Notes: generated by a model not told the origin, from the letters alone. A DNA stretch of 64,000 nt from Flaccisagitta enflata (GCA_965153355.1 OZ231126.1:3596001-3660000), one strand, 5' to 3'; counted from the first letter of the stretch, positions 10,354-63,673 are shown. Translations and numbers: made by a program.

Positions 10354-10605
10354 CAGTCGAGCTTCACTAGAGCGCACCCGCTAATAAGGCATCCCTCGCT
10401 ATTTGGCATGATTTCACTTTTTTGCCTTAGTTTTATTGTTGATGAAAACCCGTCTATAGCGCACCCGCCTACAAGGCAAATTTCACTAGAAGGCATGAAA
10501 AAGTGGTGAGATAGTTTTTTTTTGCTCGCTTAGAAGGCATCAGAAGAAGAAAAAGAAGAAGAAGAAGAAGAAGAAGAAGAAGAAGAAGAAGAAGAAGAAG
10601 AAGAA

Positions 10606-10637
<32 letters not shown>

Positions 10638-11415
10638 AGAAGAGAAAGAAGATGAGGAAGAAGAAGAAAAAGAGGAGGAAGAAGAAGAAGAAGAAGAAGA
10701 AGAAGAAGAAGAAGAAGAAGAAGAAGAAGAAGAAGAAGAAGAAGAAGAAGAAGAAGAAGAAGAAGAAGAGGAAGGAGGAGGAAGAGAAAGATGTGGTTTT
10801 TGAGATGGAAGATTTTGACGACAATATCGATATTGCCCAAGTTTCGATGATGATTCCGATGCATCGCGATGACGATGATTCCGATGCATCGCGATGACGA
10901 TGGTCAAGATGAAGACGGTGCAGAAATCAATAACGATGATGACGATAAGAAAATGGGAGGAATGATGCCGCCCACAACCACCAGTTATTTTTCACTGTCT
11001 TAACTCTTGATATGGAAAAGAAATAAGAAAGATCTTGACGCCACAACATTGGTGGAATCATTGGCCTTGATTTAAGACAAAAAACTTTTCTCTTGTGCTA
11101 TGTTCATCTACCTCCAGTCAATTTTGTCCTTCACTTAGTCAATTTTTGGTTTGTAGGTTCCTCTTTATGTTTGCCAGTATGTCTACACGTGGTTACTTGT
11201 CTATCTCTTTGTTTAGTTTTTTAGTTTTTTTAGTTTTTTTATTATTTTTCCTCCCACATGGCATTGGGTAAATCACTCTGGCAAGAACAACCTGTAAGAA
11301 AGAATCAAGAATCAATGTTAACCATAGCGAAAGTCATGCCCGGCAATAAGGCATCCCGCCTTGAAGGCACAAAATGTGTAGGTCCCTTCAAATGCCTTCT
11401 AGTGAAGCTTAAGTG
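10354..11415. mobile_element. TA-flanked non-autonomous element (Tc1/mariner/pogo-like) containing a (GAA)n tract
   Basis: TA-CAGTCGAGCTTCACTAGA ... TCTAGTGAAGCTTAAGTG-TA imperfect TIRs. Confidence 0.6.
10542..10790. repeat. (GAA)n trinucleotide repeat
   Basis: About 250 bp of nearly pure GAA. Confidence 0.95.
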
Positions 11416-14989: not shown

Positions 14990-15124
14990 ATTTGTCAGGC
15001 TGTCAGTTGTCAGCTGTCAGCTGTCAGCTGCAATCTTGCAACTCCTTTTGTAAAAAAAAACATTCCTCTCTCAGTTCCCACAAATGAAATATTTTCTTAT
15101 CACGTAGAAAGATGTATATAAAAG
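14990..15124 (+). promoter_or_regulatory. Putative core promoter: tandem CAGCTG E-boxes and TATA box
   Basis: TGTCAGCTGTCAGCTGTCAGCTG at about 15008-15030; TATATAAAAG at 15115-15124, about 100 bp upstream of a strong donor site. Confidence 0.5.
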
Positions 15125-15144
15125 CCCGCAAAATTATTCTCATG

Positions 15145-15221
15145 ATATTGTCTCTGATGAAAAAAGATCTGAAGAAGAAGAACACCAGCTAAATCAAAAT
15201 TAACACAAAAAGGCAAAAAAG
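15145..15221 (+). other. Putative non-coding first exon of the secreted-peptide gene (start approximate)
   Basis: Downstream of the TATA box; ends AAG|GTGAGT; next acceptor TCTTTACAG at 15623; conserved in the paralog at 63518. Confidence 0.5.
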
Positions 15222-15674
15222 GTGAGTTACCATTAACAAGCCTAATACCTAGGGCAACGATGTGTTCCTTTTATGCATTTTTTAAAGTTACAACAGATTA
15301 TTCTTTCCAAGTCTCAAAGTCATTATTTTTAACTCATTTTGAAGCTCAATCCTTTGCTGTGGTATACTTGATATACGTATACTTATAAATATAAAGACAG
15401 AGTCTGGAATAAAATTGTTACGGCCTGTTACGCTGTGGGAAATGTATTTGTTCGTAGAAACATATTAGCACTTTAGTTTTTGCTCACATTGTTTTACTTA
15501 CACAAAGCCTCTAGCTATTTGCAAATTTCAGTATTTTTTTTTCAACAACACTAGAGCCGATGTCCTAAGCTTTCACACATCTTTTGGGACGTTTAATTTT
15601 GTATTTCACTTTCGTCTTTACAGGTTTTGTCTTCTTTTAATATTCTTCCTTCATACTTTTCAAAGCCCGGGAAA

Positions 15675-15739
15675 ATGTTCGACAAGAAATTGGCCGTTGT
15701 GTTGATTTTCCTTCTCGTCTCAGTCATTATGGCTGAAAG
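15675..15739 (+). CDS. Coding exon 1 of putative secreted peptide precursor: signal peptide MFDKKLAVVLIFLLVSVIMAE
   Basis: Acceptor at 15623, AAAATG start, basic n-region plus hydrophobic h-region, donor AAG|GTAAGA (phase 2). Confidence 0.7.
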
Positions 15740-16064
15740 GTAAGATCAACACTAGGGTGGTCGGGGATAAGGGTAAAATCACATTGCATATATGTATCAA
15801 ATTAGAAGGGTTTCCCACATACACAAGGAGAGGTCTGAGTTTGCAATGCGTCGCGAGGAAGAAAATCAAAGGCAGGGGTGGGAATGAAATCAAAAGCCAC
15901 TCAATTATATACACTACTGTTGATTTCACACCCCAACTAGTGAGAAATCCTTCTTTTATTGTGCAAAGGGTCCAAGTATATCAATGTTTGTAATCTGATC
16001 AAATTCCCAACCACCCTGAGGTAATACCAGGGGTGTATAACTGTATATTATTGAGTCGTTTTGA

Positions 16065-16200
16065 TTCTCTGTCTCTCTGTCTTTCTGCCTCCCTCTGTCT
16101 TTCTACCTCTGTCTTTCTGCCTCTCTCTGTCTCTCTCTGTCTTTCTGTCTCTCTCCGTCTCTCTTTGTCTCTCTCTCTCTCTCTCTCTTTCTCTTTCTCT
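16065..16200. repeat. Degenerate (CT)n/(CTGT)n microsatellite
   Basis: Seen directly. Confidence 0.85.
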
Positions 16201-16476
16201 AAATATTTACGACTTTTTTCCTACGGCGATTAGCCGCCTTTATTGGCAGATGAGCTTCACGAGAGCGCGTGCTAAGAGATTGAACAAAATTAAGCCTTTT
16301 TAGGTAAAGCTGCCTTGTAGTCCTTGTACGTATGTAAAAACAACTGAAAAATAGTCGCAAAAGCGTTAGATGGTCAGCGGTACCCGTTGCCCCAGTGTCT
16401 GTGTATGTGAGTGTGATGGTGAGAGGGGCAGTGGCCCCGAAGGAGCCGGTGACCTAAGCTCAGTAAGTTTGGGAGC

Positions 16477-16845
16477 TTGAGGCTGGAATTTGAGCCTTGC
16501 TGCAAGGATTTGAGCCTTCAAGCTGGGATTTAAGCCTCAAAGCTGGAATTTGAAACTAGAGGCTGGAGTTTGAGCCTTAAGGCTGAAATTTGAGCCTCAA
16601 GGCTGGATTTTGAGCCTCGAGGTTGGTATTTGAGCCTTGAGGCTGGAATTTTAGCCTCCAGGCTGGGATTTGAGCCTCGAGGTTGGAGTTTGAGCCTCAA
16701 GGCTGAAATTTTAACCTCAAGGCTGGAATTTGAACCTCAAGGTTGGTATTTGAGCCTTGAGGCTGGAACTATAGCTTCCAGCCTGGAATTTGTGCCTCGA
16801 GGCTGGAATTTGAGCCTCATGGCTGGAGTTTAAACCTTGAGGCTC
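16477..16845. repeat. 21-bp minisatellite (GAGGCTGGAATTTGAGCCTC-like) inside a MITE/HINE-like host (about 16371-21770)
   Basis: About 17 tandem units; host ends resemble 9027-9462. Confidence 0.8.
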
Positions 16846-16920
16846 AGAAGGGGGGGGGGGACAGACGAGGGAGAAGGAGGAGAAGAAAGAGGAGAAATTT
16901 CCCCTATGTGTGAATGCATA

Positions 16921-19548
16921 CCGTCTGAGGAATAAGTCTCTGTAGAGTTTCATAAAAAGGGCGAATCCGGGGACCCCTATGAAGTTGGGTCTTGAAATGT
17001 GCGTAATACCTTGGGGAACACTAATCCAGGCTTGCTTGACCCAATATCAGGTGCGTGTTCGAATGTCTCAAAAAAAAGTGCCCAAAATGGCCGTTTTTGG
17101 CGTTTTTTTGCCTAAAAACCATCTTAAACTTGGAGTAGAGCCATGAAATTTTAAGTGCACATGTATTAGACCCTAATTGTGCTGTATGTAAAAAATTATG
17201 AGTCTGTGAAAATTTTAAGGTACCTAAAATTTGAAAAAACTGCTTTTTCGCGATTTTCTAAATAAAAAAAAAATTCGTTACCCCCCTAAAAGTTGACCGA
17301 TTTGGACAAAATTTTTACTGGAGGTATTTCACATTATGGACTACCTCCATAAAAATCGGAGCACTTGAAGTACCAAAAATTGCCTTCAAAAATCCAAAAT
17401 TCGGGAAAAAAATACCCAAAAATCGTCTTTGGGCCTGAGACATTGCCATGATATGGCAGGCACCTATGAACCATGGGCTGAAATTCCTTTAGGGGACTCT
17501 TGGTGATGCCCAAAAAAAATTTGGTGGCCCTGAGAGCCTTTTTTGGGTGTCAAATAACAATTTAATGAAGACCGTAAAACAAAAAATCGCGAAAATGGCC
17601 AATTTTAGGCCTCTTTTCAACCTGTAACCTAAAAAAAAGTTGAAAAATGGCCCTGAAATTTCAAATGCACATGTATAAGACCCTACTGAAGCTTTTTTGT
17701 AAACAAATTAAAGTTTTTGAAAATTTCATGGTACCTTAATTTTGAAACAAGGCCAACACCTATAAGTGCGAGACTTACAGACAACACCTATAAGTGCGAG
17801 ACTTACAGACAAAGAGTGACTTAGAATGACTTAGAATGACTTTCAATGACTTAGAATGACCTAAAATGACCAAAATTGACTTAAAATGACTAAAAAAACG
17901 AAAAACCAAAAATAACTTAAAATAACTTAAAATGACTTAAAATGACTTAAAATGACTTAGACTGACTCAAAATGACTTAGAATAACTATAAATGACTTAA
18001 AATGACTTAAAATGACCTGAGAGTTGACGTTATAGTACAAAAAAGTAAAGTGTGACGGACCGACGGACGGACGGACCGACAGACCGACGGACGGACCGAC
18101 AAAGCGGGTTGTAGAGTCGCGTGCACGCGACTAAAAACGGCTATTTCGCGATTTTTTAAACAATAAAAATTTTTGTTACCCCCCTAAAAGTTGACCGATT
18201 TTGACAAAATTTTTACTGGAGGTATTTCACATTATTGACTACCTCCATGTAAAATTTCATCAAAATCGGAGCACTTGAAGTACCCAATATTGCCTTCGAA
18301 AATCCAAAATTCTGGGAAAAAAAACCCAAAAATCGTCTTTGGGCCTGAGACATTGCCATGATATGGCAGGCACCTCTGAACCATGGGCTGAAATTCCTTT
18401 AGGGGACTCTTGGTGATGCCCAAAAAAAATTTGGTGACCCTGAGAGCCTTTTTTGGGTGTAAAATAACAATTTATTGAAGACCGTAAAACCAAAAATCGC
18501 GAAAATGGCCAATTTTAGGCCTCTTTTCAACCTGTAACCTAAAAAAAAGTTGAAAAATGGCCCTGAAATTTCAAATGCACATGTATAAGACCCTACTGAA
18601 GCTTTTTTGTAAACAAATAAAAGTTTTTGAAAATTTTATGGTGCCTTAATTTTGAAAAATCGGCTATTTCGCGATTTTTAAAAAGAAAAAAAAAGCTGTT
18701 ACCCCCCTAAAAGTTGACCGATTCAGACAAAATTTTTACTGGAGGTATTTCACATTATGGACTACCTCCATGTAAAATTTCATCAAAATCGGAGCACTTT
18801 AAGTACCCAATATTGCCTCCGAAAATCAAAAATTCTGGAAAAAAAAACCCAAAAATCGTCTTTGGGCCTGAGACATTGCCATGATATGGCAGGCACCTAT
18901 GAACCATGGGCTGAAATTCCTTTAGGGGACTCTTGGTGATGCCCAAAAAAAATTTGGTGACCCTGAGAGCCTTTTTTGGGTGTCAAATAACAATTTATTG
19001 AAGACCGTAAAACCAAAAATCGCGAAAATGGTCAATTTTAGGCCTCTTTTCAACCTGTAACTTAAAAAAAGTTGAAAAATGGCCCTGAAATTTCAAATGC
19101 ACATGTGTAAGATCCTACTGAAGGTTTTTTGTAAACAAATTAAAGTTTTTGAAAATTTTATGGTACCTTAATTTTGAAAAAACGGCTATTTCGCGATTTT
19201 TAAAAAGAAAAAAAAAGCCGTTACCCCCCTAAAAGTTGACCGATTTTGACAAAATTTTTACTGGGGATACTTCATATCATGAATTACCTCCATGTAAAAT
19301 TTCATCAAAATCGGAGCACTTTAAGTACCCAAAACAGCCTTCGAAAATCCAATATTCGCCCAAAAATACCCAAAAAATTGTCTTTGAGCCTGAGATATTG
19401 CCAAAATGTGGCAGGCACCTGTGAACCATGGGCTGAAATTCCTTTAGGGAACTTTTGGTGATGCTCCGAAAAAATTTGGTGACCCTGAAAGCCTTTTTTG
19501 GGTGTCAAATAATGATTGTGAAGTGCAATTACTCACCCTTCTCTCTCA

Positions 19549-19617
<69 letters not shown>

Positions 19618-21734
19618 TTTTCCCAGCTACCCCCCCATTGGTAGCCCTGGCTCTGGTCTTTGATATTGGATTTTCGAAGGAAATTTTGGGTACTTAAAGT
19701 GCTCCGATTTTGATGAAATTTTACATGGAGGTAATTCATGATATGAGGTATCCCCAGTAAAAATTTTTTCAAAATCGGTCAACTTTTAGGGGGGTAACGA
19801 AATTTTTTTTTCGTTTAAAAAATCGCGAAATAGCCGTTTTTTCAAAAGTAAGGTACCATAAAATTTTCAAAAACTTTTATTTGTTTACAAAAAAGCTTCA
19901 GTAGGGTCTTATACATGTGCATTTGAAATTTCAGGGCCATTTTTCAACTTTTTTTTAGGTTAGAGGTTGAAAAGAGGCCTAAAATTGGCCATTTTCGCGA
20001 TTTTTGGTTTTACGGTCTTCAATACATTGTTATTTGACACCCAAAAAAGGCTCTCAGGGTCACCAAATTTTTTTTGGGCATCACCAAGAGTCCCCTAAAG
20101 GAATTTCAGCCCATGGTTCATAGGTGCCTGCCATATCATGGCAATGTCTCAGGCCCAAAGACGATTTTTGGTTTTTTTTTTCCAGAATTTTGGATTTTCG
20201 AAGGCAATATTGGGTACTTCAAGTGATCCGATTTTTATGAAATTTTACATGGAGGTAGTCCATAATGTGAAATACCTCCAGTAAAAATTTTGTCTGAATT
20301 GGTCAACTTTTTGGGGGGTAACAGCTTTTTTTTTCTTTTTAAAAATCGCGAAATAGCCGATTTTTCAAAATTAAGGTACCATAAAACTTTCAAAAACTTT
20401 TATTTGTTTACAAAAAAGCTTCAGTAGGGTCTTATACATGTGCATTTGAAATTTCAGGGCCATTTTTCAACTTTTTTTTAAGTTACAGGTTGAAAAGAGG
20501 CCTAAACTTGGCCATTTTCGCAATTTTTTGTTTTACGGTCTTCAATAAATTGTTATTTGACACCCAAAAAAGGCTCTCAAGGTCACCAAATTTTTTTGGG
20601 GCATCACCAAGAGTCCCCTAAAGGAATTTCAGCCCATGGTTTATAGGTGCCTGCCATATCATGGCAATGTCTCAGGCCCAAAGACAATTTTTGGGTTTTT
20701 TTTTCCAGAATTTTGGATTTTCGAAGGCAATTTTTGGTACTTCAAGTGCTCCGATTTTTATGAAATTTTACATGGAGGTAGTCAATAATGTGAAATACCT
20801 CCAGTAAAAATTTTGTCAAAATCGGTCAATTTTTAGGGGGGTAACGGTTTTTTTTTTCGTTTAAAAAATCGCGAAATAGCCGTTTTTTAAAAATTAAGGT
20901 ACCATAAAATTTTCAAAAACTTTTATTTGTTTACAAAAAAGCTTCAGTAGGGTCTTATACATGTGCATTTGAAATTTCAGGGCCATTTTTCAACTTTTTT
21001 TTAGGTTACAGGTTGAAAAGAGGCCTAAAATTGGCCATTTTCGCGATTTTTTGTTTTACGGTCTTCATTAAATTGTTATTTGACACCCAAAAAAGGCTCT
21101 CAGGGCCACCAAATTTTTTTTGGGCATCACCAAGAGTCCCCTAAAGGAATTTCAGCCCATGGTTTATAGGTGCCTGCCATATCATGGCAATGTCTCAGGC
21201 CCAAAGACGATTTTTGGGTATTTTTTTCCAGAATTTTGGATTTTTGAAGGCAATTTTTGGTACTTCAAGTGCTCCGATTTTGATGAAATTTTACATGGAG
21301 GTAGTCCATAATGTGAAATACCTCCAGTAAAAATTTTGTCCAAATCGGTCAACTTTTAGGGGGGTAACGAAATTTTTTTTTGTTTAGAAAATCGCGAAAA
21401 AGCAGTTTTTTCAAATTTTAGGTACCTTAAAATTTTCACAGCCTCATAATTTTTTACATGCAGCTCAATTAGGGTCTAATACATGTGCATGTAAAATTTC
21501 ATGGCTCTACTCCAAGTTTAAGATGGTTTTTAGGCAAAAAAACGCCAAAAACGGCCATTTTGGGCACTTTTTTTTGAGACATTCGAACACGCACCTGATA
21601 TTGGGTCAAGCAAGCCTGGATTAGTGTTCCCCAAAGTATTACGCACATTTCAAGACCCAACTTCATAGGGGTCCCCGGACTCGCCCTTTTGACCCCTCCA
21701 AACTTTGAGCTAGAAAGTCTTATTCCTCAGACGG
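16921..21734. mobile_element. 4.8-kb foldback-type element: long inverted arms built from ~522-bp tandem units
   Basis: Termini CCGTCTGAGGAATAAG / CTTATTCCTCAGACGG, CATA on both flanks; arms about 16960-19510 and 19665-21690 are reverse complements; central (CT)n spacer. Confidence 0.85.
17746..18136 (-). mobile_element. HINE inserted in the left foldback arm
   Basis: AACAAGGCCAACACCTATAAGT ... (AAATGACTTA)n ... AGTCGCGTGCACGCGACTAAAA; sister units have the empty TTTGAAAAA site. Confidence 0.8.
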
Positions 21735-21861
21735 CATAGGTCATCGGCCCCTTCAGGGCCTCTGCCCAATCATAGATTCACCTTCGAATATTATACTTGA
21801 TTGTCGGCATGGCGTACTATTCCTGCCCTAATAACATTTTTGATTCATTTCTTTTTTCCAG

Positions 21862-21923
21862 ATTTGACGCTCGTCAGGCGAATGTGAATCTGGGGAAAAG
21901 GAGAGCAGAAACTCCAAAACGTG
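21862..21923 (+). CDS. Coding exon 2 of putative peptide precursor: (R)FDARQANVNLGKRRAETPKR(G)
   Basis: TTTCTTTTTTCCAG acceptor; phase 2 matches exon 1; contains a G-K-R-R amidation/cleavage motif; donor weak (GTACTA, or GTGGTA at 21921, both phase 1). Confidence 0.6.
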
Positions 21924-21930
21924 GTACTAC

Positions 21931-22778
21931 TTTTTTAGTCACGTGCACGCGACTCTACAACCCGCTCTGTCCGTCTGACGGTCTGTTGGTCGGCTGGTCG
22001 GTCCATAACTTTTTACTTTTTTTTTTCATCATTATATGTTATTAAAAGCCATTTTCATTCATTTGAAATTATTTAAAGACAGTTAGATTTAGTCTTTTGG
22101 TCTTTTTGTCTTTTAATCTAACAGTTAGCAGGGTCCAGAAATGTATAAAAAGTGTGATCTAATTCTATCCACTTGTCGCAAGACCAATTTTAGGGTGGGG
22201 AATCAGCTCAAATCACCAAAAAAATTCTCTGGTCAAAATTTGGGACGCTACTGCTGCATATCTCAGGTCAGAAGGCCATATTAGGTCAAAATGTGGGAAT
22301 TATGAAAATCTGATTGCAGATTCAGAATCTTTGCAAAAAAAGCAAACAGAAACAGCTCTTCTTCTTTAGATATTCCAACTAGAACATGATTTGATATAAC
22401 TTCAAAGGTCATATTCAAGTCAAATTTGCTCTTTTGTTTGAAATCTTTTTTTTTAAGCACTTGATGATAATTTTGACTGCGTTTCAGATAGAATATCAAA
22501 AAAAGCACATCTTTATGTAGTTTTTTTGCAAGGATTCTGAATCTGCAATCAGATTTTCAAAATTCCAATTTTGAAATTTTAACCATTTATAGCTTTTTGA
22601 CCTAAGATATGCAGCGGTAGCGTCCCAAATCTTGGCCAGAGAATTTTTTCGATGGTCTGAGCTGATTCCCTCTCGTGACAAGTGGATGATATTCGATCAT
22701 ACTTTTTATACATCTCTGGACATTGTTAATCTTATGGCCTTAACAATCGCACGCGGCTGTAAGGTGTTGGCCTTGTTG
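21931..22778 (+). mobile_element. HINE containing a nested palindromic MITE (22129-22725)
   Basis: TTTTTTAGTCACGTGCACGCGACT ... GCACGCGGCTGTAAGGTGTTGGCCTTGTT; inner element GTCCAGAAATGTATAAAAAGT ... ACTTTTTATACATCTCTGGAC. Confidence 0.7.
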
Positions 22779-22860
22779 GTCAAGAAAAAAAATCATATTG
22801 TTCCGCTAAGTAAATCCGTTACTTAAGAGAGAGATCCCTTCCCATTTTCTTTATATTCAG

Positions 22861-22944
22861 GGAATGTGCTTTTGGAGAGACTAACGAAGGGGTTGAATGA
22901 GCTAAAGTTGAAGAGAAGGCAGCACATGGTCATGAACCTTCGCG
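22861..22944 (+). CDS. Coding exon 3 of putative peptide precursor: NVLLERLTKGLNELKLKRRQHMVMNLR
   Basis: CCCATTTTCTTTATATTCAG acceptor, CG|GTATGT donor; phase 1 frame is open and matches exon 2. Confidence 0.6.
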
Positions 22945-23047
22945 GTATGTTAATGGCTTGACCACACAGAAGTTTCACGATGAAAGAATCATTTCTGAGC
23001 TTCAAAAAAACCTCTTTGAAACCTGGTTTTTGATATGCTCATGCATG

Positions 23048-24097
23048 TAGGGGACGCCACGTCCACCACGTCCATGGACGTGGTACAGAGGTACCGATTC
23101 TGTGTAGCATGGAAGCAATGCTACGCGGCAGACAAGCGTCAAAGTGCGGTAGATGTGGCTAAGAAGCAGGGGGGCAGACGCTTAAGCGGGAATCACGGGG
23201 GAGATGGATGGAATGATTGTAATGAGGAAAGAACAGAATGCCAGATTTTCGATTTCGCGCAACTGCTTGCCTCGGTGGATATAATGCTCATTTGCATATT
23301 GCAGCAAATTGTTTTATGCATGCCTCTCAAAGCTCTTAAAACCATAATTGTAGTCGTTCAAAATGTCAAACATTTTCTTTTTTTCTAAGGCCGAGCAAAG
23401 GCCCAATAATTTTGTAATAACAGTGCAAAATGGCGAATCTTTCAAAGAAAGGTTGACTGTCAAACATGATTGCGTTTTGTTCAAAGGGATGTTGAGGATG
23501 AAAAAATTTCTTGACTTTAGTCAAGAAATTTAGAAGTAAAATCTTGCATAGATGGTTAATACTTCTCCATTAGTATGGGTGCGCGTGTGGCCCCAAAACA
23601 TAGCTTGACTCGCTCATGAGCCATGGCCCATGTTCAATTGGTGTCTGAGCCTTTGATGAAAAGGGTTGTTGAGCATTTCAAATAAATAAGGGATGAAGAA
23701 ATTTTATACACAGTTCAGAGCCAATATACGAGCTTGTGAAATTTTCACTGAAAAACGCGGCAGCTTGTACTGAATTTCCTTTGCTACGCGGCAGGCTAGC
23801 AAAATCGGCACCTCTGACGTGGTTTAAGTCGGTCTTGAAAACTAAGTCGGACTTGAATAAGGAGTGATTCCATATTGAAAAATTTGAAATTTTCTTGAAA
23901 AACTGTTTAAAAAGAGAAAAATTGAATTAAGTTTGTTTGAAATATCACAAAAAAGTCTCTGGATAGAAGATGTTTATTCATGAATGATGCAAAAAGTCAA
24001 AAAATTAATATTTTTTCTTAGTTTTTTCCTTTTTTTGAGTAAGTTGGTCTTGATTCTGACTCGGTCATGAAATGCTTAGTGGACGTGAACTCCCCTA
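23048..24097. mobile_element. hAT-like element with nested hAT-like MITE (23086-23816)
   Basis: Outer TAGGGGA..CACGTCCAC inverted ends, TSD CATGCATG/CATCCATG; inner CAGAGGTACCGATT ... AATCGGCACCTCTG, TSD ACGTGGTA/ACGTGGTT. Confidence 0.65.
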
Positions 24098-25317
24098 CAT
24101 CCATGGAAATGCTTAAATACAAGTCAGTCTGTAGGTCCACCCTATCAAGCTTTGTTGCTTTAGCAATCAACCAAAAATGTTTGCCCGCTTGAAACTTGTA
24201 AAACAACAGTTTCCTTGAAGTACCGATATAACATGAATTCTGCGGTACTTACAAGACAAATGTAAATTGCTCGTGCCTCCTATGATAAAGTTTGTTACAA
24301 ACCCTTCGCAATTCTTTTCGTATTTGTTCCAGATCTCAAACCTGGATCTCGAACCTGGAGGGAGCACTTGATGGTCCCGATCAATGCCAGAGGACAGCTC
24401 TAACTATACCCTTCCCCTAAAATGTTTTATATATTTTTCTAAAATGCTCTTAAAATTTTGTTTTAAATAGAAGAAAAATGACACATTTAGTAAAAAGTAT
24501 ATACCTGAGGATTTTTGATAGCGTTTCAAAAAACCATATTTTAGGTATGTATGTGTATGTAATGGAAGCTTACACTATATAAATGTCCGTATTTTTTCAG
24601 ATTTTCTTTAAAGTTCAATGTTTCTTATTTGGATAATTGTATGAGTTTTATATAGGATGAATTGTTGCACACATCATATAATCCTGAGGGCGAGGACAAG
24701 GGCTGCTCCTACAGCGATTGGCAAAGCCGGGACTGTGGCTAATTCTATTTTAGTCAATTCTATTTTAGTTCACTGCACGGACAAGATGAAAATCAAGTTT
24801 AACTTTAACTTGCACAAACTGGATGGCTCTTCCTCGATAACTAATTGCTGATTAAAAATATAACAATAATGAGCCGTGCAGCCACAAATATGTAGAGGTT
24901 CTTTTTGCGGTAAAGATATTTTAAATGAAGAATTTTGACTTAGTAGATTTCGTTAATTTTTGACTTAGTATTTTATCCTCTTTTAACAATTGTAAGTTAA
25001 AACCAATCGCTTTCAATGCGTTTTCAATTAAAAAGACACGTCCAACCCTGCCTAACTGGGCCTAGGGGCATGCGACGGTGATTGAATTCTGGTACTTGAC
25101 TTCTATCACTTCCTTGATAATTCTTTAGCGATTTAATCGAGCCGCCAGAATGTTCAAATGAAAGTTGGTGTAAATACAGTGCGGCGCAAAAAAAGCAGGA
25201 TACAGTAATTGTTGTCTGGTCTTGGAAATACGGGGAAATTCATTACAGGAAGACAAATGAAGTTAAAGAATAAAGAATGTAAACTGATACAAGTAGTAAG
25301 GGGAATCAAAAATTTTA

Positions 25318-25884
25318 GGCTATCATCTAGTATCCGGGATTGAGTAAAACTGTTTTATCAAAGACGCATAATGAAAAAGCTCCATTGAAATTGACATCAA
25401 CCATGATCTAAAACAACTGACGCCACCCCTAACCCTAACCCTAACACCACCCCTAACCCTTACCGCACCCCTAACCTTAACCCTAACCCTTATCCCTAAA
25501 CCTACCCCTAACCCCACCCCTAACCCTTACCGCACCCCTAACCTTAACCCTAACCCTTATCCCTAAACCTACCCCTAACCCCAACCCCACCCCTAAACCT
25601 AACCCAACCCCTAACCCCACCCCCAACCCTACCCCTACCCCTTAACCCTAACCCCAACCCCACTCCTAACCCTAACCCTAACCCTAACCTCACGACTAAC
25701 CCTAACCCTAACCCCACTCCTAACCCTAACACCACCCCTAACCCTAACCCCACCTCTAACCCTAAACATAAACAGCGTAAATTGAACGTCAATAACCTTC
25801 CTCGTGCTCGCCCGAGTCCTACAGAAACAAAAGGCTACTGTCTTCGCCTCTGAAAATCTCAATCCCGGATTCTAGATGATTGCC
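25318..25884. mobile_element. TIR element (GG termini, near-8-bp TSD; Merlin-like) containing telomere-like (CCCTAA)n
   Basis: GGCTATCATCTAGTATCCGGGATTGAG ... CTCAATCCCGGATTCTAGATGATTGCC; flanks AAATTTTA/AAATTGTA; degenerate CCCTAA array 25427-25766. Confidence 0.7.
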
Positions 25885-26060
25885 AAATTGTATATTAAGT
25901 CAGACCAGGATTTACATTGGGGTATCTCTCTATAAGCTATCTATTATACAATTTGTCAAAAAATATGAGCAGGGATCAATTTATGTACAAACTAGACTAA
26001 CTTGTTTTAACGTTAACTGTTTAGAAATTATCGTGCGCTGCATTGTTCTCTTTTTTACAG

Positions 26061-26122
26061 TTAAAAACGGAGGCTTCGATTCCGTTTATTACTACACTTC
26101 GCGGAATCTGCGTCTATGTTGA
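26061..26122 (+). CDS. Candidate terminal exon of the peptide precursor: (V)KNGGFDSVYYYTSRNLRLC*
   Basis: Strong TTGTTCTCTTTTTTACAG acceptor, phase 1 compatible; alternative acceptors exist (for example 24600). Confidence 0.35.
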
Positions 26123-26910
26123 GCAGTGGCAGATAATTGCAACGTAGACAAACCGATTGATAGAATGGCATAGCTAGCGAGAAAACCTGTCCTGTACTAA
26201 AGCACAGTTGTAATTGAACTGACAGTCGTTCCTAATTCCTAGTGGTAATCACAGACGCGTACGCGCCAACAGAATTGAGGGCGATCGGAAGGAAGAAACG
26301 AGCCCGGATACACATCTAACCCAGTCGCGTGCAGGGAAGTGTGGGTAGGCATGAGTATCGATGAATAAGGCCGTATAACGGTATAAGGCCAAGCATTTGA
26401 GCAGAGGCTACACAATGTCGCGGCGGACAGGGGCGGAAATGCGCGTGTAAACTCTTTTCTACACTAGCATCACGGACAGACGGTCAGACGCACAGACAAA
26501 AGCTTTTCCGAAAACGCCCGATGAGATTAAGTAAAAATAAAGAATTGACGGATCGCCAAAGTTGGGCGCGTTGGCGAATAAAAGAGGGAGAGGGAAAAAG
26601 AATGAATTGAGGGAGATCACGCTAACCTATTGCGCCTTGTATCGGCTTTTCTTTGGATATTTCTTTCATATCGTTGCATAAGATAGAAACAGTTCTCGAG
26701 AGCGCGAGAAGTGACATAACCGCTCTCTTGATCTTGTGAGCGCGAAGTGACATCGGCAATTCCGCGGTGTTGAGGGAGACTTTTGTGTGGTAATTAAATA
26801 GTCTGGAACAGGTCTGGACAGACGGGGGCGGTCAACCCCATCTAAGAGGAAAAGAAAACAAGTGAATAAAGGAGAAAAAAAAGGGGAAGTAAAAAGTAAA
26901 AAGAAGAAAG

Positions 26911-27079
26911 AAACAAGGCCGGATACACGGCCAATACCAGTTGCGGACGGGTGGGCAGGGGCGGAAATGCGCGTTTTCACACTTTGTGACTCGTGTTCAC
27001 GGACCAACCAACCAACCGACGGACTCACGGACGGACGGACAAAGCCTCTTATAGAGTTGCGTGTCCGCAACTAAAAAAA
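26911..27079 (-). mobile_element. Short HINE, same family as 4569-4735
   Basis: Same ends and core. Confidence 0.75.
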
Positions 27080-27100
27080 GAAGGAAAAGCGCGCGCACAC

Positions 27101-27146
<46 letters not shown>

Positions 27147-27177
27147 TAAGCCTAAGAGGCAAGACATGGTCATGGTC

Positions 27178-27249
<72 letters not shown>

Positions 27250-27284
27250 AAAGTAAGCCTAAGAGGCAAGACATGGTCATGGTC

Positions 27285-27362
<78 letters not shown>

Positions 27363-27390
27363 TAAGCCTAAGAGGCAAGACATGGTCATG
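27101..27390. repeat. Compound repeat: three copies of AAAAGTAAGCCTAAGAGGCAAGACATGGTCATGG separated by (GA)n
   Basis: Seen directly. Confidence 0.9.
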
Positions 27391-28109
27391 GGCGAAAGCC
27401 TGGCAGGGGCAGTAATACATTGAGGTGTATCAGAATGGCCTCGAGGCATCAGATCGTCTGTGCCGCGGTTTCGGGCACGGGGTGGGTGTGGTAGAACACG
27501 AAAATACCCTTGGGGGGCTTCCCAAAGTCGTCCTGTAAGTACTCCACCTCTTAAAAGCTTGCGAAAATGGCCCCAAAGCTGGTGGTGACCTGTCAACTTC
27601 AATTTTTTTTTCGCCAGCCTGTTTTTGATGAATAAGCACATTTTTGGACTCATTGGGGAGCAAAAACATGTAAGAGGGTAGTGGGGTGGGTGGGTGAGGG
27701 GGGTGCCCCATGGGGTGGGGGCAAGGGGGTCAAATTGGCCAAAATTCAGGTCCTGATGGAGGTGGTCGTAAAAAATGACAAAAATTCAAAATACTAATTT
27801 TTTTGGTCAAATTATGTTGTAACTTAATGGTTTTAGCCAAAAAAACAAATCCAAATTGGAATTTTGGTTGAAAAATGCTGTATTACAGTTGTGGTGGTTG
27901 TTGGTGATTTCAACTTTGAAAGCTCATATTTTTTACACTGTTAGGAGAAAATATTTTTGGCTGGTCGCATTCAAAAAAGCATAAAAAAATCTTTCAGAAT
28001 CTCATGAATTTTGTCTAGTTTACTTCAGAAATGGCGCTACAGTGATGTTTCAAAATACAGTGAATATTATGTTTTTCAGGTGTTTGAACGATCACATTTT
28101 GTTGAGCTG

Positions 28110-28529
28110 TTTTTTAGTCGCGTGCACGCGACTCTGCAACCCGCTCCGTCCGTCCGTCCGTCCGTCCGTCCGTCTGTCCGTAACACTTTGCTTTTTTTTG
28201 TCTTTTTGGGTCGTCTGGAGTTATTTTGAGTCATTTTTTTGTTGTTTTTGGGAATTATTGGTTACTTTTAGTCATTTTTGGTTATTTTTGTTCAGTTTTG
28301 GTCATTTTGGTCATTTTTGGTCATTTTTGATTATTTATGATTATTTTTGGTCACACCTACATACCATTACGATGACCTAAAACACTACTAACAAGGCCAA
28401 GTAGGCCAATAAGGTGCGACGTGTGGATCGTCGAACGAATGCATTACCCGACCAACCGACCAACCGACCAACCAACCAACCGACCAACGGCCACAGCCAG
28501 TTAAAGAGGTGCTTTGTCGCACCTAAAAA
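28110..28529. mobile_element. Truncated HINE (28110-28353, +) followed by a short HINE of the AGGTGCGAC family (28390-28529, -)
   Basis: AGTCGCGTGCACGCGACT start; AACAAGGCCAAGTAGGCC ... AGGTGCTTTGTCGCACCTAAAAA. Confidence 0.65.
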
Positions 28530-28571
28530 GCATCTAAATTACAGTCCCACGGCATGAGTGTTATCATACCT

Positions 28572-31500
28572 ATAAGGGTGTAAACCAGCAGAAATCCCAA
28601 TTTTCCCACTTCAAAAGGATATCACTGTAGCCCAACTAGGAAATCCAATGAGATGTAAAAATTCAAGCTGCTGACTGCTCAAACATTGTTCTTTCACTGA
28701 ACCTTGTCAAATTTGTTCAATCTTTCCATTAACGCCTTCATTTCGACCCAGAAAGTTCACACATACTGAATAACAACCCTCACACCAAAGCTAAAATCTT
28801 GCCTCACAACAATTGCAGGCCCCAAATCTTTTTAACACTATCAACAGAATGGCCACAGACAGCAACTCTTTGAGTTTAAAGGAATTCCACGCGGCCAAAG
28901 TAGAGCAATCTCATTTTATATGTTAAAATCGATAAAAATCAATGTTTTTGCATACTACTGACGTCTCAGAAATGACGCTCTAGTCCCTGTCCAAATCTGT
29001 TTTTGAGCGGGGCCATTTGTTTGAAACCTAAGAGAGGGAGTCACTACAGCTGTTTCAACATGATCTAAGATGTTGAGCGCAACGAATATAGGAAAAAGAG
29101 CAATGATAACTGAGACGTGGGGAAAGGCCTTAGTTTGTTGGGGGCTTTCACTCTTTAAACAGTGTTGAGTAGTAGACTTTATGTCAAAAAATGGAGAAAA
29201 ATGTCATTTTTCAAAACAATATTTCAATTTCTATCATAATCAAGCAATAAATCAAAATAAAATACCTTTAAACAGTTTTTAGTCGCGTGCACGCGACTCT
29301 ACAACCCGCTCCGTCGGTCCGTCGGTCGGTCGGTCCGTCCGTAACACTTTGCTTTTTTTGTCGTTTTTTTGTCATTTTGGGTTGTCTGGAGTTATTTTGA
29401 ATCATTTTTTTGGTGTTTATGAGAATTATTGGTTGTTTTTGGTCATTTTTTATCATTTTTGGTCATTTTTGGTCATTTTGGTCATTTTGGTCATTTTGGT
29501 CATTTTGGTCATTTTTGGTCTTTTTTGATCATTTTTAGTCGTTTTTGGTCATTTTTGGTCATTTTTGGTCATTTTTGGTTATTTTTGGTCATTTTTGGTC
29601 ATTTCGGTCAAGGTTTCGGTCTGCTGGTTTAAGTCTGCTGGTTTAAGTCTGCTGGTTTAAGTCTGCTGGTTTAAGTCTGCTGGTTTAAGTCTGCCGGTCT
29701 AAGTCTGCTGGTTTAAGTCTGCTGGTTTAAGTCTGCTGGTTTAAGTCTGCTGGTTTACGTCTGCTGGTTTACGTCTGCTGGTTTAGGTCTGCTGGTTTAA
29801 GTCTGCTGGTTAAAGTCTGCTGGTTTAAGTCTGCTGGTTTAAGTCTGCTGGTTTAAGTCTGCTGGTTTAAGTTGGCTGGTTTAAGTCTGCTGGTTTACGT
29901 CTGCTGGTTTAAGTCTGCTGGTTTAAGTCTGCTGGTTTAGGTCTGCTGGTTTAGGTCTGCTGGTTTAAGTCTGCTGGTTTAAGTCTGCTGGTTTAAGTCT
30001 GCTAGTTCAAGTCTGCTGGTTTAAGTCTGCTGGTTTAACTCTGCTGGTTTAACTCTGCTGGTTTAAGTCTGCTGGTTTGGGTCTGGTTTGGGTCTGGTTT
30101 AAGTCTGGTTTAAGTCTGGTTTAAGTCTGGTTTAAGTCTGGTTTAAGTCTGGTTTAAGTACGGTTTTAGTCTGGTTTAAGTCTGGTTTAAGTCTGGTTTG
30201 AGTCTGGTTTGAGTCTGGTTAGAGTCTGGTTTGAGTCTGGTTAAAGTCTGGATTGAGTCTGGCTTGAGTCTGGTTTAAGTCTGATTAATGTCTGGTTTAA
30301 GTCTGGTTCATGTCTGATTTATGTCTGGTTTAGGTCTGGTTTAGGTCTGGTTACGGTCTGGTTTTGGTCTGGTTTAATTCTGGTTTGATCCTGGTTTGAG
30401 TCTGGTTTGAGTCTGGTTTGAGTTTGGTTTGAGTCTGGGTTGAGTCTGGTTTGGGTCTGGTGTAAGTCTGATTTTCAATAAAAAGATACAATAAGGAGTC
30501 AGGTCAGTTCAGTTATTTTTGTCCTGCACGCGACTTATAGGTGTTGGCCTTGTTTTAAAAAAATTCATGTCACCTTGCCCCTTATATGGGTGTAAACCAG
30601 CAGAAATCCCAATTTTCCCACTTCAAAAGGATATCACTGTAGCCCAACTAGGAAATCCAATGAGATGTAAAAATTCAAGCTGCTGACTGCTCAAACATTG
30701 TTCTTTCACTGAACCTTGTCAAATTTGTTCAATCTTTCCATTAACGCCTTCATTTCGACCCAGAAAGTTCACACATACTGAATAACAACCCTCACACCAA
30801 AGCTAAAATCTTGCCTCACAACAATTGCAGGCCCCAAATCTTTTTAACACTATCAACAGAATGGCCACAGACAGCAACTCTTTGAGTTTAAAGGAATTCC
30901 ACGCGGCCAAAGTAGAGCAATCTCATTTTATATGTTAAAATCGATAAAAATCAATGTTTTTGCATACTACTGACGTCTCAGAAGTAACGCTCTAGTCCAT
31001 GTCCAAATCTGTTTTTGAGCGGGGCCATTTGTTTTAAACCTAAGAGAGGGAGTCACTAAAGCTGTTTCAACATGATCTAAGATGTTGAGCGCAACGAATA
31101 TAGGAAAAAGAGCAATGATAACTGAGACGTAGGGAAAGGCCTTAGTTTGTTGGGGGCTTTCACTCTTTAAACAGTGTTGAGTAGTTGACTTTATGTCAAA
31201 AAATGGGAAAAAATGTCATTTTTCAAAACAATATTTCAATTTCTATCATAATCAAGCTATAAATCAAAATAAAATACCTTTAAACAGTTTTTAAAAAAAA
31301 AATTCATGTCACCTTGCCCCTTATATGGGTGTAAACCAGCAGAAATCCCAATTTTCACACTTCAAAAGGATATCACTGTAGCCCAACAAGGAAATCCAAT
31401 GAGATGTAAAAATTCAAGCTGCTGAATGCTCAAACATTGTTCTTTCACTGAACCTTGTCAAATTTCTTCAATCTTTCCATTAACGCCTTCATTTGGACCC

Positions 31501-34500
31501 AGAAAGTTCACACATACTGAATAACAACCCTCACACCAAAGCTAAAATCTTGCCTCACAACAATTGCAGGCCCCAAATCTTTTTAACACTATCAATAGAA
31601 TGGCCAGAGACAGCAACTCTATGAGTTTAAAGGAATTCCACGCGGCCAAAGTAGAGCAATCTCATTTTATATGTTAAAATCGATAAAAATCAATGTTTTT
31701 GCATACTACTGACGTCTCAGAAATGACGCTCTAGTCCCTGTCCAAATCTGTTTTTGAGCGGGGCCATTTGTTTGAAACCTAAGAGAGGGAGTCACTACAG
31801 CTGTTTCAACATGATCTAAGATGTTGAGCGCAACGAATATAGGAAAAAGAGCAATGATAACTGAGACGTGGGGAAAGGCCTTAGTTTGTTGGGGGCTTTC
31901 ACTCTTTAAACAGTGTTGAGTAGTAGACTTTATGTCAAAAAATGGAGAAAAATGTCATTTTTCAAAACAATATTTCAATTTCTATCATAATCAAGCAATA
32001 AATCAAAATAAAATACCTTTAAACAGTTTTTAGTCGCGTGCACGCGACTCTACAACCCGCTCCGTCGGTCCGTCGGTCGGTCGGTCCGTCCGTAACACTT
32101 TGCTTTTTTTGTCGTTTTTTTGTCATTTTGGGTTGTCTGGAGTTATTTTGAATCATTTTTTTGGTGTTTATGAGAATTATTGGTTGTTTTTGGTCATTTT
32201 TTATCATTTTTGGTCATTTTTGGTCATTTTGGTCATTTTGGTCATTTTGGTCATTTTGGTCATTTTGGTCATTTTTGGTCTTTTTTGATCATTTTTAGTC
32301 GTTTTTGGTCATTTTTGGTCATTTTTGGTCATTTTTGGTTATTTTTGGTCATTTTTGGTCATTTCGGTCAAGGTTTCGGTCTGCTGGTTTAAGTCTGCTG
32401 GTTTAAGTCTGCTGGTTTAAGTCTGCTGGTTTAAGTCTGCTGGTTTAAGTCTGCCGGTCTAAGTCTGCTGGTTTAAGTCTGCTGGTTTAAGTCTGCTGGT
32501 TTACGTCTGCTGGTTTACGTCTGCTGGTTTAGGTCTGCTGGTTTAAGTCTGCTGGTTTAAGTCTGCTGGTTTAAGTCTGCTGGTTTAAGTCTGCTGGTTT
32601 AAGTCTGCTGGTTTAAGTTGGCTGGTTTACGTCTGCTGGTTTACGTCTGCTGGTTTAAGTCTGCTGGTTTAAGTCTGCTGGTTTAGGTCTGCTGGTTTAG
32701 GTCTGCTGGTTTAAGTCTGCTGGTTTAAGTCTGCTGGTTTAAGTCTGCTGGTTTAAGTCTGCTGGTTTAAGTCTGCTGGTTTAAGTCTGCTGGTTTAACT
32801 CTGCTGGTTTAAGTCTGCTGGTTTAAGTCTGCTGGTTTGGGTCTGGTTTGGGTCTGGTTTAAGTCTGGTTTAAGTCTGGTTTAAGTCTGGTTTAAGTCTG
32901 GTTTAAGTCTGGTTTAAGTACGGTTTTAGTCTGGTTTAAGTCTGGTTTAAGTCTGGTTTGAGTCTGGTTTGAGTCTGGTTAGAGTCTGGTTTGAGTCTGG
33001 TTAAAGTCTGGATTGAGTCTGGCTTGAGTCTGGTTTAAGTCTGATTAATGTCTGGTTTAAGTCTGGTTCATGTCTGATTTATGTCTGGTTTAGGTCTGGT
33101 TTAGGTCTGGTTACGGTCTGGTTTTGGTCTGGTTTAATTCTGGTTTGATCCTGGTTTGAGTCTGGTTTGAGTCTGGTTTGAGTTTGGTTTGAGTCTGGGT
33201 TGAGTCTGGTTTGGGTCTGGTGTAAGTCTGATTTTCAATAAAAAGATACAATAAGGAGTCAGGTCAGTTCAGTTATTTTTGTCCTGCACGCGACTTATAG
33301 GTGTTGGCCTTGTTTTAAAAAAAATTCATGTCACCTTGCCCCTTATATGGGTGTAAACCAGCAGAAATCCCAATTTTCCCACTTCAAAAGGATATCACTG
33401 TAGCCCAACTAGGAAATCCAATGAGATGTAAAAATTCAAGCTGCTGACTACTCAAACATTGTTCTTTCACTGAACCTTGTCAAATTTGTTCAATCTTTCC
33501 ATTAACGCCTTCATTTGGACCCAGAAAGTTCACACATACTGAATAACAACCCTCACACCAAAGCTAAAATCTTGCCTCACAACAATTGCAGGCCCCAAAT
33601 CTTTTTAACACTATCAATAGAATGGCCAGAGACAGCAACTCTATGAGTTTAAAGGAATTCCACGCGGCCAAAGTAGAGCAATCTCATTTTATATGTTAAA
33701 ATCGATAAAAATCAATGTTTTTGCATACTACTGACGTCTCAGAAATGACGCTCTAGTCCCTGTCCAAATCTGTTTTTGAGCGGGGCCATTTGTTTTAAAC
33801 CTAAGAGAGGGAGTCACTACAGCTGTTTCAACATGATCTAAGATGTTGAGCGCAACGAATATAGGAAAAAGAGCAATGATAACTGAGACGTAGGGAAAGG
33901 CCTTAGTTTGTTGGGGGCTTTCACTCTTTAAACAGTGTTGAGTAGTAGACTTTATGTCAAAAAATGGGAAAAAATGTCATTTTTCAAAACAATATTTCAA
34001 TTTCTATCATAATCAAGCAATAAATCAAAATAAAATACCTTTAAACAGTTTTTTTAAAAAAAATTCATGTCACCTTGCCCCTTATATGGGTGTAAACCAG
34101 CAGAAATCCCAATTTTCACACTTCAAAAGGATATCACTGTAGCCCAACTAGGAAATCCAATGAGATGTAAAAATTCAAGCTGCTGAATGCTCAAACATTG
34201 TTCTTTCACTGAACCTTGTCAAATTTCTTCAATCTTTCCATTAACGCCTTCATTTAGACCCAGAAAGTTCACACATACTGAATAACAACCCTCACACCAA
34301 AGCTAAAATCTTGCCTCACAACAATTGCAGGCCCCAAATCTTTTTAACACTATCAATAGAATGGCCAGAGACAGCAACTCTATGAGTTTAAAGGAATTCC
34401 ACGCGGCCAAAGTAGAGCAATCTCATTTTATATGTTAAAATCGATAAAAATCAATGTTTTTGCATACTACTGACGTCTCAGAAATGACGCTCTAGTCCAT

Positions 34501-62922: not shown

Positions 62923-63673
62923 CAGCTTGACGCCATACTAAGGTAATCAATTTTGTACTACCATTTCTGAAAAACAGTGGCGTAGGACAACGGCGACAAC
63001 GTCGACAACGTATGACGACAACGACGACAACAACGACGAGCATGACTTTGGATTTCTTGACATTTTAATGCATTTCCCATTTGTCAGCTGCCAGCTGCAA
63101 TAATCGTGCAATCCTGCAATAGTTTTTGTTAAAAACTTTCCTCAACAATCCCACAAATAAACAAGGCCGGATACACGGCTACCCCAGTCGCGTGCGGGTG
63201 GGCAGGAGCTGTATTTGAGGTCACTTGATCATTTGGGCAGAAGCAGTGAGGCCAAAGACCGCGAAAACCCCAAAAACGTAAAATGTGATGGACAGACGGA
63301 CCGACGGACGGACCGACGGACGGACCGCCAAAGCGGGCTGTAGAGTCGCGTAGCATGCGACTAAAAATATGTTTTCTTAAAATATTTGCAGAATCACGTA
63401 AAAAGGATGAGTGTAAAAGCCACAAACTTATTCTCATGATATTGTCTTTGATGAAAAATTTTCTGAAGAAGAAGTAGAACACCGGCTAAATCAAAATTAA
63501 CACAAAAAGGCAAAAAAGGTGAGTTAACATCAACAAGCCTGTTACCGAGAGCAACGATGTGTTCCTTTTTCGCATTTTTTTAAGTAACAACAGATTATTC
63601 TTTCCAAGGCTCAAAGTTATTATTTTTAACTCATTTTGAAGCTCAATCCTTTGCTATGGTGTCATTTGATACT
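62923..63673 (+). other. Paralogous copy of the 14268-15370 promoter/first-exon region
   Basis: Colinear similarity including CAGCTG boxes and AAAGGCAAAAAAG|GTGAGT donor (exon end 63518). Confidence 0.7.
63161..63366 (-). mobile_element. HINE inserted in the paralogous promoter
   Basis: AACAAGGCCGGATACACGGC ... AGTCGCGTAGCATGCGACTAAAAA; absent at the homologous site about 15085. Confidence 0.75.

Follow-up and report, generated by a model that had tools for sequence, protein, structure and literature searches.

Introduction

The maturation of amidated neuropeptide and peptide-hormone precursors depends on prohormone convertases, on carboxypeptidase E/D, and on peptidylglycine alpha-amidating monooxygenase. 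In the precursors of the GnRH/AKH/corazonin, SIFamide, and luqin groups, one amidated peptide is placed next to the signal peptide and is followed by an associated peptide. The peptide of the GnRH/AKH/corazonin type has Gln at the signal cleavage site and an aromatic motif before G-K-R. Lineage-restricted signaling and defense peptides of marine invertebrates are poorly catalogued. Here, a stretch of 64,000 nucleotides from Flaccisagitta enflata (GCA_965153355.1 OZ231126.1:3596001-3660000), designated as the window, was analyzed for a chain of short exons on its + strand between positions 15115 and 26122, which had been predicted to encode a small secreted precursor of the neuropeptide or prohormone kind. 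Positions are counted from the first nucleotide (nt) of the window.

The reading preferred here, tentatively and at somewhat less than an even chance, is that the locus is an unannotated lineage-restricted gene, or a member of a small duplicated family, for a short, secreted, strongly basic peptide precursor. Among the observations behind it are a probable gene start composed of exons 1 and 2, and an exon 4 that is conserved at another locus. If the exon chain is correct, a processed signaling peptide and another type of secreted basic peptide would be about equally probable products. The label of a small secreted peptide precursor is reasonable, while that of a neuropeptide gene giving QANVNL-amide is a guess. 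Secretion and every step of peptide processing are predictions from the nucleotide sequence.

Structure of the candidate gene

In the proposed model, transcription would begin just past a TATA-like box at 15115, and a non-coding exon 1 would be spliced to exon 2, the putative source of the start codon and of a cleavable signal peptide. Exons 3 (21862-21923) and 4 (22861-22944) would be joined across introns swollen by non-autonomous transposons, and the product would enter the secretory pathway. Processing as a prohormone, if it is one, would consist of cuts at K-R and K-R-R and of amidation of the peptide ending in NVNL-Gly. The features of the model are as follows, with exon sequence in upper case and intron sequence in lower case at the splice borders.

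15115..15124, + strand: TATA-like box TATATAAAAG, read from the sequence
15115..15221, + strand: exon 1, 5' untranslated region (UTR); donor AAG/gtgagt, in the top 0.05% of 4091 GT sites
15222..15623, + strand: intron 1 (402 nt), with GT..AG borders
15624..15739, + strand: exon 2, with 51 nt of UTR, the ATG at 15675, and 21 codons plus 2 nt; acag/G at its start and AAG/gtaaga at its end
15740..21861, + strand: intron 2 (6.1 kb), mostly repeats according to self-BLAST
21862..21923, + strand: exon 3 (62 nt), a plausible candidate that contains QANVNL-G-K-R-R; ccag/A at its start and GTG/gtacta at its end
21924..22860, + strand: intron 3 (937 nt), with a transposon terminus at 21931/2 and a foldback at 22125-22729
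22861..22944, + strand: exon 4 (84 nt), conserved at another locus; tcag/G at its start and GCG/gtatgt at its end
26061..26122, + strand: last exon of the earlier candidate chain, not supported; acag/T at its start and TGA at its end

The sequence read-out and a scripted join agreed with the original prediction on the borders, phases, and reading frame. All five segments are present at these coordinates with GT-AG borders throughout, and their joining gives 90 codons followed by a stop, with phases 2, 1, and 1. The start codon is also present; it occupies 15675-15677, one base before the position 15676 that had been implied. For exon 1, the TATA-like box and the donor stand, and the transcribed part is probably shorter than 15115-15221, as transcription probably starts about 30 nt past the box, near 15145.

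The exons do not appear to derive from a high-copy repeat. Within the window, exons 2, 3, and 4 are each present only once, whereas exon 1 is present twice. In searches of a large protein library, described below, the open reading frame (ORF) of exon 4 had one match and that of exon 3 had none.

The 5' end of the candidate gene

Splice sites were ranked with a rough donor and acceptor weight matrix applied to every GT and AG on the + strand (4091 and 3800 sites, respectively). The matrix values follow the general vertebrate and metazoan consensus, so the ranks are approximate. The chance baseline was given by first-order Markov simulations of the window, with 60 strands of 64 kb for exon-2-grade site pairs. 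An ORF was regarded as signal-peptide-like when K or R within residues 2-7 was followed by ten uncharged residues with a mean hydropathy of at least 2.8.

The ATG at 15675 is the first of its frame because exon 1 contains an in-frame TAA at 15201-15203, and A is found at position -3 of this ATG. Among AG sites, the acceptor of exon 2 belongs to the best 0.16%, and among GT sites, its donor belongs to the best 0.1%; the exon is open in one frame only. The encoded segment starts with K4-K5, followed by 13 uncharged hydrophobic residues and I-M-A with the small Ala at -1. Its 9-residue hydropathy peaks at 3.4-3.7 at residues 6-10, and the ORF is signal-peptide-like by the above rule, which is a heuristic only. 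Signal-cleavage assignment follows the (-3,-1) rule, and cleavage would probably occur after I-M-A, at residue 20.

Each of these features alone is not rare. Signal-peptide-like ATG ORFs were found five times on the + strand and twice on the - strand (several of them overlapping ATGs), against 1.2 per simulated strand. Exon-2-grade site pairs around an open frame occurred five times in the 60 simulated strands. The coincidence of all these features in one 116-nt exon by chance is very improbable. Because they coincide there, and because a TATA-like box and, 402 nt upstream, a near-perfect donor accompany them, exons 1 and 2 are taken as the start of a gene, either real or real until recently, for a protein that would enter the secretory pathway; they very probably are a genuine start.

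Conservation of exon 4

The acceptor and the donor of exon 4 rank in the top 0.4% and the top 1.5%, respectively, and only one frame is open. The stop-to-stop ORF that includes it (22827-22958, 44 amino acids) was used as a query against a library of 5.8 billion protein clusters, which was also used for exon 3. Among library proteins of 24-77 amino acids, one match was obtained with an E value of 1.8e-7: a 71-amino-acid protein from an 859-bp contig, designated as P0001. Among library proteins of 78-2000 amino acids, none of the four candidates scored. P0001 is an ORF called on genomic DNA, not a complementary DNA product, and it also spans the pyrimidine tract before the exon (F-P-F-S-x-Y-S).

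When P0001 was compared with the window by tblastn, the similarity continued upstream of exon 4 at a lower identity and with a 7-codon gap. The identity is 22/25 in exon 4 against 13/22 upstream (Fisher p = 0.04, or p = 0.006 with gaps counted as mismatches). The sole indel inside exon 4 consists of two whole codons and is in frame. The pyrimidine tract is kept in P0001, and so are the border residues R-G (G/GT) across the exon 4 donor; beyond these residues, the two sequences differ. This pattern, seen at the protein level and in small counts, suggests a coding exon compared with its counterpart in a paralog or in a related species.

Two further candidates from contig searches were rejected. 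One of them (L001), the only hit among 282 metagenome-contig pattern matches to pass tblastn, is the antisense of a prokaryotic gene and has only the pattern L-K-L-K-R-R-Q-H in common. The other (L002), the single one to pass among 67 genome-contig pattern matches, has only the intronic pattern D-P-F-P-F-S-L-Y-S in common. From viral contigs, no relatives were found for exon 4 (46 pattern matches), exon 2 (283 pattern matches), or exon 3 (56 pattern matches).

The window contains other open segments with acceptor and donor scores of at least 6. They are located at 4886-4959, 27618-27669, and 62043-62114 on the + strand, and at 9380-9456, 55319-55361, and 58680-58722 on the - strand.

Candidate exon 3 and the spliced product

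A direct join of exon 2 to exon 4 shifts the frame and runs into a stop. Thus, a middle exon with a length of 3n+2 is required. Between 15740 and 22860, 192 frame-keeping AG..GT segments are available from 113 acceptors. The acceptor of exon 3 at 21862 is in the top 0.9% of AG sites and is the second best of the 113 frame-compatible acceptors. The best one, at 19627, owes its score to a (TC)38 microsatellite directly before it.

Exon 3 is located inside a stretch of 193 bp (21738-21930) that has no second copy in the window. This island is bordered on the left by an inverted duplication with 94.7% identity, and on the right by the transposon terminus at 21931/2, which is 7-8 nt past the exon 3 donor. 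An alternative donor at 21920, 3 nt upstream of the exon 3 donor, also keeps the frame. It is plausible that exon 3 is the exon joining exon 2 to exon 4. That the chain of exons 2, 3, and 4 is right exactly as drawn is possible, with a likelihood a little under one half.

In the predicted spliced product, the dibasic sites are G-K-R-R, K-R, and K-R-R. The 50 residues after the signal peptide include 14 K/R and 5 D/E, with a net charge of about +9. QANVNL-amide as a product would be speculative, and so would the predicted cleavage at the single Arg before Gln.

The 3' end

The original prediction had placed a candidate last exon at 26061-26122. The stop-to-stop ORF at 25880-26119 (80 amino acids, the final 20 of which correspond to the proposed exon) was searched against 1.84 billion representatives, and three proteins were found at E values of 0.001 or less (P0002, P0003, and P0004). 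The acceptor itself is good (top 0.7%). In the alignment with P0002 (112 amino acids), 57 of 60 residues are identical upstream of the acceptor and 8 of 11 in the exon, after which there is no similarity; the similarity of the window to P0002 stops near 26093, about halfway through the proposed exon. For P0004 (69 amino acids), the identity is 25/51 upstream and 8/15 in the exon (Fisher p = 1.0), and both P0004 and P0002 have M-L-N at a place where the window has other residues. At 26120 starts a repeat that is also present at 7978-8158. The segment 26061-26122 is not accepted as coding because it is no better conserved than the supposed intron upstream, is worse conserved in the close homolog, and straddles the end of the homology. 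It is improbable that this exon is right.

P0003 is a repetitive protein of 6841 amino acids. It had raised the possibility that the last exon lies within a high-copy repeat, which was rejected; its match is confined to the initial 27 residues of the ORF and stops short of the exon. The matching stretches of P0003 score 4-9 bits each. The region 25880-25960 is weakly similar to a unit repeated at least 21 times in P0003 with a spacing of about 176 residues, which may be a leucine-rich repeat, judging from the impression it gives.

Other ends of the coding sequence were also considered.

22945..22961, + strand: read-through if the exon 4 donor is unused, giving G-M-L-M-A and then a stop; this tail is not kept in P0001, which has G-T-stop
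23795..23799, + strand: alternative terminal acceptor, adding one Gly and then TAG; score 7.9

The acceptor at 23795 is the highest of the four downstream candidates scoring at least 4 in 22945-34000, with no further support. An acceptor at 24333 would add 23 residues; it lies inside a repeat and likewise has no further support. Canonical polyadenylation [poly(A)] signals are found 400-1050 nt from the respective alternative stops. Downstream of exon 4, the search gave neither a credible terminal exon nor a poly(A) signal close by.

Repeats and the second copy of the 5' region

Copy numbers of repeats were counted by self-BLAST within the 64-kb window. The expectation of tiny exons scattered among transposons held well: the exons are 62-116 nt long, and 57% of the region 15222-26060 has at least one other copy inside the window. 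The repeats of intron 2 extend over 16065-21737, include tandem arrays, and have up to 40 copies in the window. An 855-bp inverted duplication in this intron (16918-17750 against 20883-21737) shows 94.7% identity, and its two arms, with 3 kb of repeats between them, could form a large foldback. Intron 3 contains a 605-bp foldback at 22125-22729.

The transposon terminus at 21931/2 is shared to the base with 13 other copies in the window. The repeat family to which it belongs, observed at 21931-22095, 63272-63367, and 12 further places, has a sharp terminus together with a short palindrome, and an ACGG-type microsatellite is found next to it.

At 25427-25765, about 340 bp are taken up by a degenerate telomere-like (CCCTAA)n array. 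The N-terminal 41 residues of P0002 match the window at 25209-25331 (37/41), and the homologous locus of P0002 is without 25332-25873; there, the counterpart of 25209-25331 continues straight into that of about 25874-26092. Loci or haplotypes thus differ at the telomere-like array and its flanks by an insertion or deletion of about 540 bp.

The promoter-proximal part of the candidate gene has a second copy about 48 kb downstream.

63380..63671, + strand: second copy, comprising the promoter-proximal region with exon 1 and the first part of intron 1; 293 nt aligned at 87.7% identity

The copy of exon 1 at 63423-63518 shows 91% identity, and the first 150 nt of intron 1 are shared at about 90% identity. 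Further collinear blocks are found upstream of the matching part. The coding exons of the second copy, if any, would be beyond the window. The open segment at 62043-62114 mentioned above, with splice scores of at least 6, is located 1.3 kb upstream of the second exon-1 copy.

The window has the character of eukaryotic DNA. Its G+C content is 32-46% in 2-kb windows, and it contains a TTAGGG-type interstitial array. An Rfam scan of the whole window gave no matches, and Pfam assigned no family to 10 long ORFs of the window. A scan for bacterial promoters and terminators at the 5' end found nothing, which is of no relevance to a eukaryote.

A large array with units of about 2.0-2.8 kb and a periodic base composition occupies the region from about 28000 to 52000. 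Transposon termini and weak peptide matches recur in this array at 29276, 32027, 43805, 46561, 49324, and 51366, and a second recurring set is found at 29745, 32491, 35242, 42246, 44263, 47030, 49793, and 51835. Short tandem repeats are found inside the same array, for example a 14-mer in 27 copies at 29619-30000. A GAA-type trinucleotide repeat at 10417-10770 generates ORFs of 128-153 amino acids in several frames on both strands; it is a low-complexity sequence and not a gene.

Assessment of the gene model

Several results weigh against the preferred reading, and they are collected here. The donor of exon 3 (GTG/gtacta) is weak and ranks only in the top 30%. For the exon 3 ORF, no candidate was found among proteins of 27-88 amino acids in the library of 5.8 billion clusters, and the same library yielded no spliced protein with exon 3 or exon 4. 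The motif G[KR][KR] is seen in the open segments of 2 of the 113 acceptors against about 2.6 expected (six-frame rate 0.00095 per residue), and adjacent basic pairs number five against about 3.6 expected from composition. Exon-4-grade site pairs are common, with five on the + strand and three on the - strand against 2.35 per simulated strand. The last exon of the proposed chain fails the conservation test. The second copy of the 5' region does not keep the TATA-like box and reads GAGTGTAAAAG there, and its exon 1 is conserved no better than its intron.

A search of sequencing runs with 15100-25099 listed six RNA runs, namely four metatranscriptomes of a single study that contain shares of 0.12-0.14 of the sampled words, an oligo-dT run with a share of 0.06, and a poly(A) run of raw reads; these small shares do not amount to evidence of expression. 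Database and literature searches point in the same direction. None of the four exon-bearing ORFs, P0001, P0002, and P0004 had a Pfam match above the gathering cut-off; the sub-threshold chance matches were three in number, with 13-15 bits against cut-offs of 21-25. An exact full-text literature search of about 8.4 million papers gave no matches for six exon motifs, although a divergent relative could escape exact strings, and gave only three irrelevant papers for five names ending in "-amide". The exon motifs were absent from the supplements of five mollusc and spiralian neuropeptide catalogues (PMC6425005, PMC4200219, PMC8398477, PMC5996578, and PMC8557429).

The predicted signature of a signal peptide followed by peptide-G-K-R was retained only in part. 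The start is signal-peptide-like by the heuristic, and G-K-R-R is encoded in candidate exon 3; the motif is no rarer than chance. Because G[KR][KR] occurs at chance frequency among the frame-compatible candidates, an amidation signature is selectable by eye. The dibasic pairs follow from composition, since K/R make up 14 of the 50 residues beyond the signal peptide. The amidation signature is suggestive only through its coincidence with a strong acceptor, and such a coincidence by chance would be expected at roughly 2-10%.

Among the alternatives, one with a minor but appreciable probability is that exons 1 and 2 are a real start to which the wrong downstream exons were assembled. Other or several middle exons would then be used, the protein would differ after residue 21, and there would be no G-K-R peptide. 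The weak exon 3 donor, the lack of an exon 3 homolog in the protein library, and the chance frequency of G[KR][KR] among the frame-compatible acceptors all fit this alternative. So do the 192 single middle exons that keep the frame, a number obtained by enumerating single exons only, and the proposed last exon that already fails. On the other side, 21862 is the best acceptor once the microsatellite-driven one is set aside, and transposons have spared the unique island around exon 3. In addition, exon 4 is independently conserved and is open in the frame fed by exon 3, on the same strand and 7 kb downstream.

It is unlikely that the locus is a decaying duplicate, or pseudogene, of a small secreted-peptide family, swamped by transposons and no longer correctly spliced or expressed. 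The repeated 57% of the intronic span and the transposon terminus 7-8 nt past a weak donor are compatible with decay, and the telomere-like array with its flanks, about 540 bp in total, is inserted relative to the P0002 locus. The missing terminal exon and poly(A) signal and the second 5' copy, which diverges evenly over exon and intron, are also in line with it. However, the frame of exons 2-4 is intact, without any stop or frameshift, and none of the core splice dinucleotides is missing. In genomes of this kind, large introns full of transposons are normal, which also weighs against a pseudogene.

A secreted product other than a neuropeptide, such as a cationic amphipathic host-defense peptide or another effector whose basic sites belong to the active peptide, is distinctly unlikely. 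The mature part, with its net charge of about +9 (14 K/R against 5 D/E in 50 residues), would suit this role, and the exon 4 stretch alternates hydrophobic and charged residues. The product shows no likeness to known neuropeptide families in Pfam, the motif literature, or the catalogue supplements, and lineage restriction with duplication is typical of immune peptides. Against it, Pfam shows no homology to any antimicrobial peptide family either, and the placement of Gly before K-R-R, and of Gln behind R and behind K-R-R, agrees with prohormone processing.

It is very unlikely that there is no gene and that T-rich and purine-rich sequence merely offered a chance chain of open fragments to the eye. 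In favor of this, chance alone gives at least one signal-peptide-like ATG ORF and one exon-4-grade site pair per 64 kb, G[KR][KR] is at chance frequency, and no annotated protein is found in the library. Against it, the TATA-like box, top-0.05% donor, top-0.16% acceptor 402 nt later, signal-like first ATG ORF, and in-phase top-0.1% donor are jointly very improbable, and another locus conserves exon 4 together with its frame and borders.

The preferred reading is that of a gene for a short secreted basic precursor. An extended form of it would be an orphan taxon-restricted neuropeptide family with at least two tandemly spaced members 48 kb apart, exon islands amid Helentron/pearl-like introns, and two blocked peptides; this form is doubtful. 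The two peptides would be pyroGlu-A-N-V-N-L-amide from exon 3 and the conserved Q-H-M-(V-M)-N-L-R after K-R-R from exon 4. The exon 4 peptide may also be amidated if the terminal exon gives Gly and a stop, as the acceptor at 23795 would.

If the preferred reading is true, a short peptide-precursor gene has been missed by ordinary annotation, with exons of 62-116 nt among kilobases of transposons, and it would represent a new family of peptides on which gene finders could be tested. At present, it is a putative gene model of modest general interest, as the signal peptide, dibasic sites, and amidation are textbook ideas. As far as can be read from the DNA, a lineage-restricted secreted peptide is reasonably modeled by this gene, which is not an established neuropeptide gene.

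Relation to described transposons and peptide precursors

The repeats of the introns can be compared with known transposons by layout only. The pearl/DTC84 elements of bivalve molluscs are described in PMC3879986 with a layout of L, core repeats, (ACGG)n, and R, and the same modular layout is reported there for some insect elements. The repeats in the window similarly pair short tandem arrays, ACGG-type microsatellites, and conserved termini, and in this layout they resemble elements of the pearl/DTC84/Helentron type. The resemblance is at most a hint of the host lineage, such as bivalves, and bears on the introns rather than on the candidate gene.

The candidate precursor shares with the cationic host-defense precursors of marine invertebrates a predicted signal peptide, a small size, a strongly positive charge, lineage restriction, and duplication. 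It differs from them in having no cysteine framework and, in the Pfam scan, no homology to any such family.

In comparison with the GnRH/AKH/corazonin, SIFamide, and luqin precursors, a single short G-K-R peptide is likewise encoded near the N-terminus and is followed by a longer C-terminal remainder. In contrast to the GnRH/AKH/corazonin type, six residues (E-R-F-D-A-R) are placed between the likely signal cleavage site and Gln. Q-A-N-V-N-L contains no aromatic residue or Trp, and the remainder contains no cysteine pair, unlike in these three groups. Membership in the GnRH/AKH/corazonin, SIFamide, or luqin families was rejected on account of the offset Gln and the absence of the family motifs.

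Compared with amidated prohormones in general, the product shows no similarity to any described family in the Pfam and exact-motif searches, and its motifs occur at chance frequency given its composition. The likeness is in the arrangement: the precursor is short and starts in a signal-peptide-like way, K-R-R comes directly after Gly, more K-R and K-R-R sites are present, and two of the possible cleavage sites are followed by Gln.

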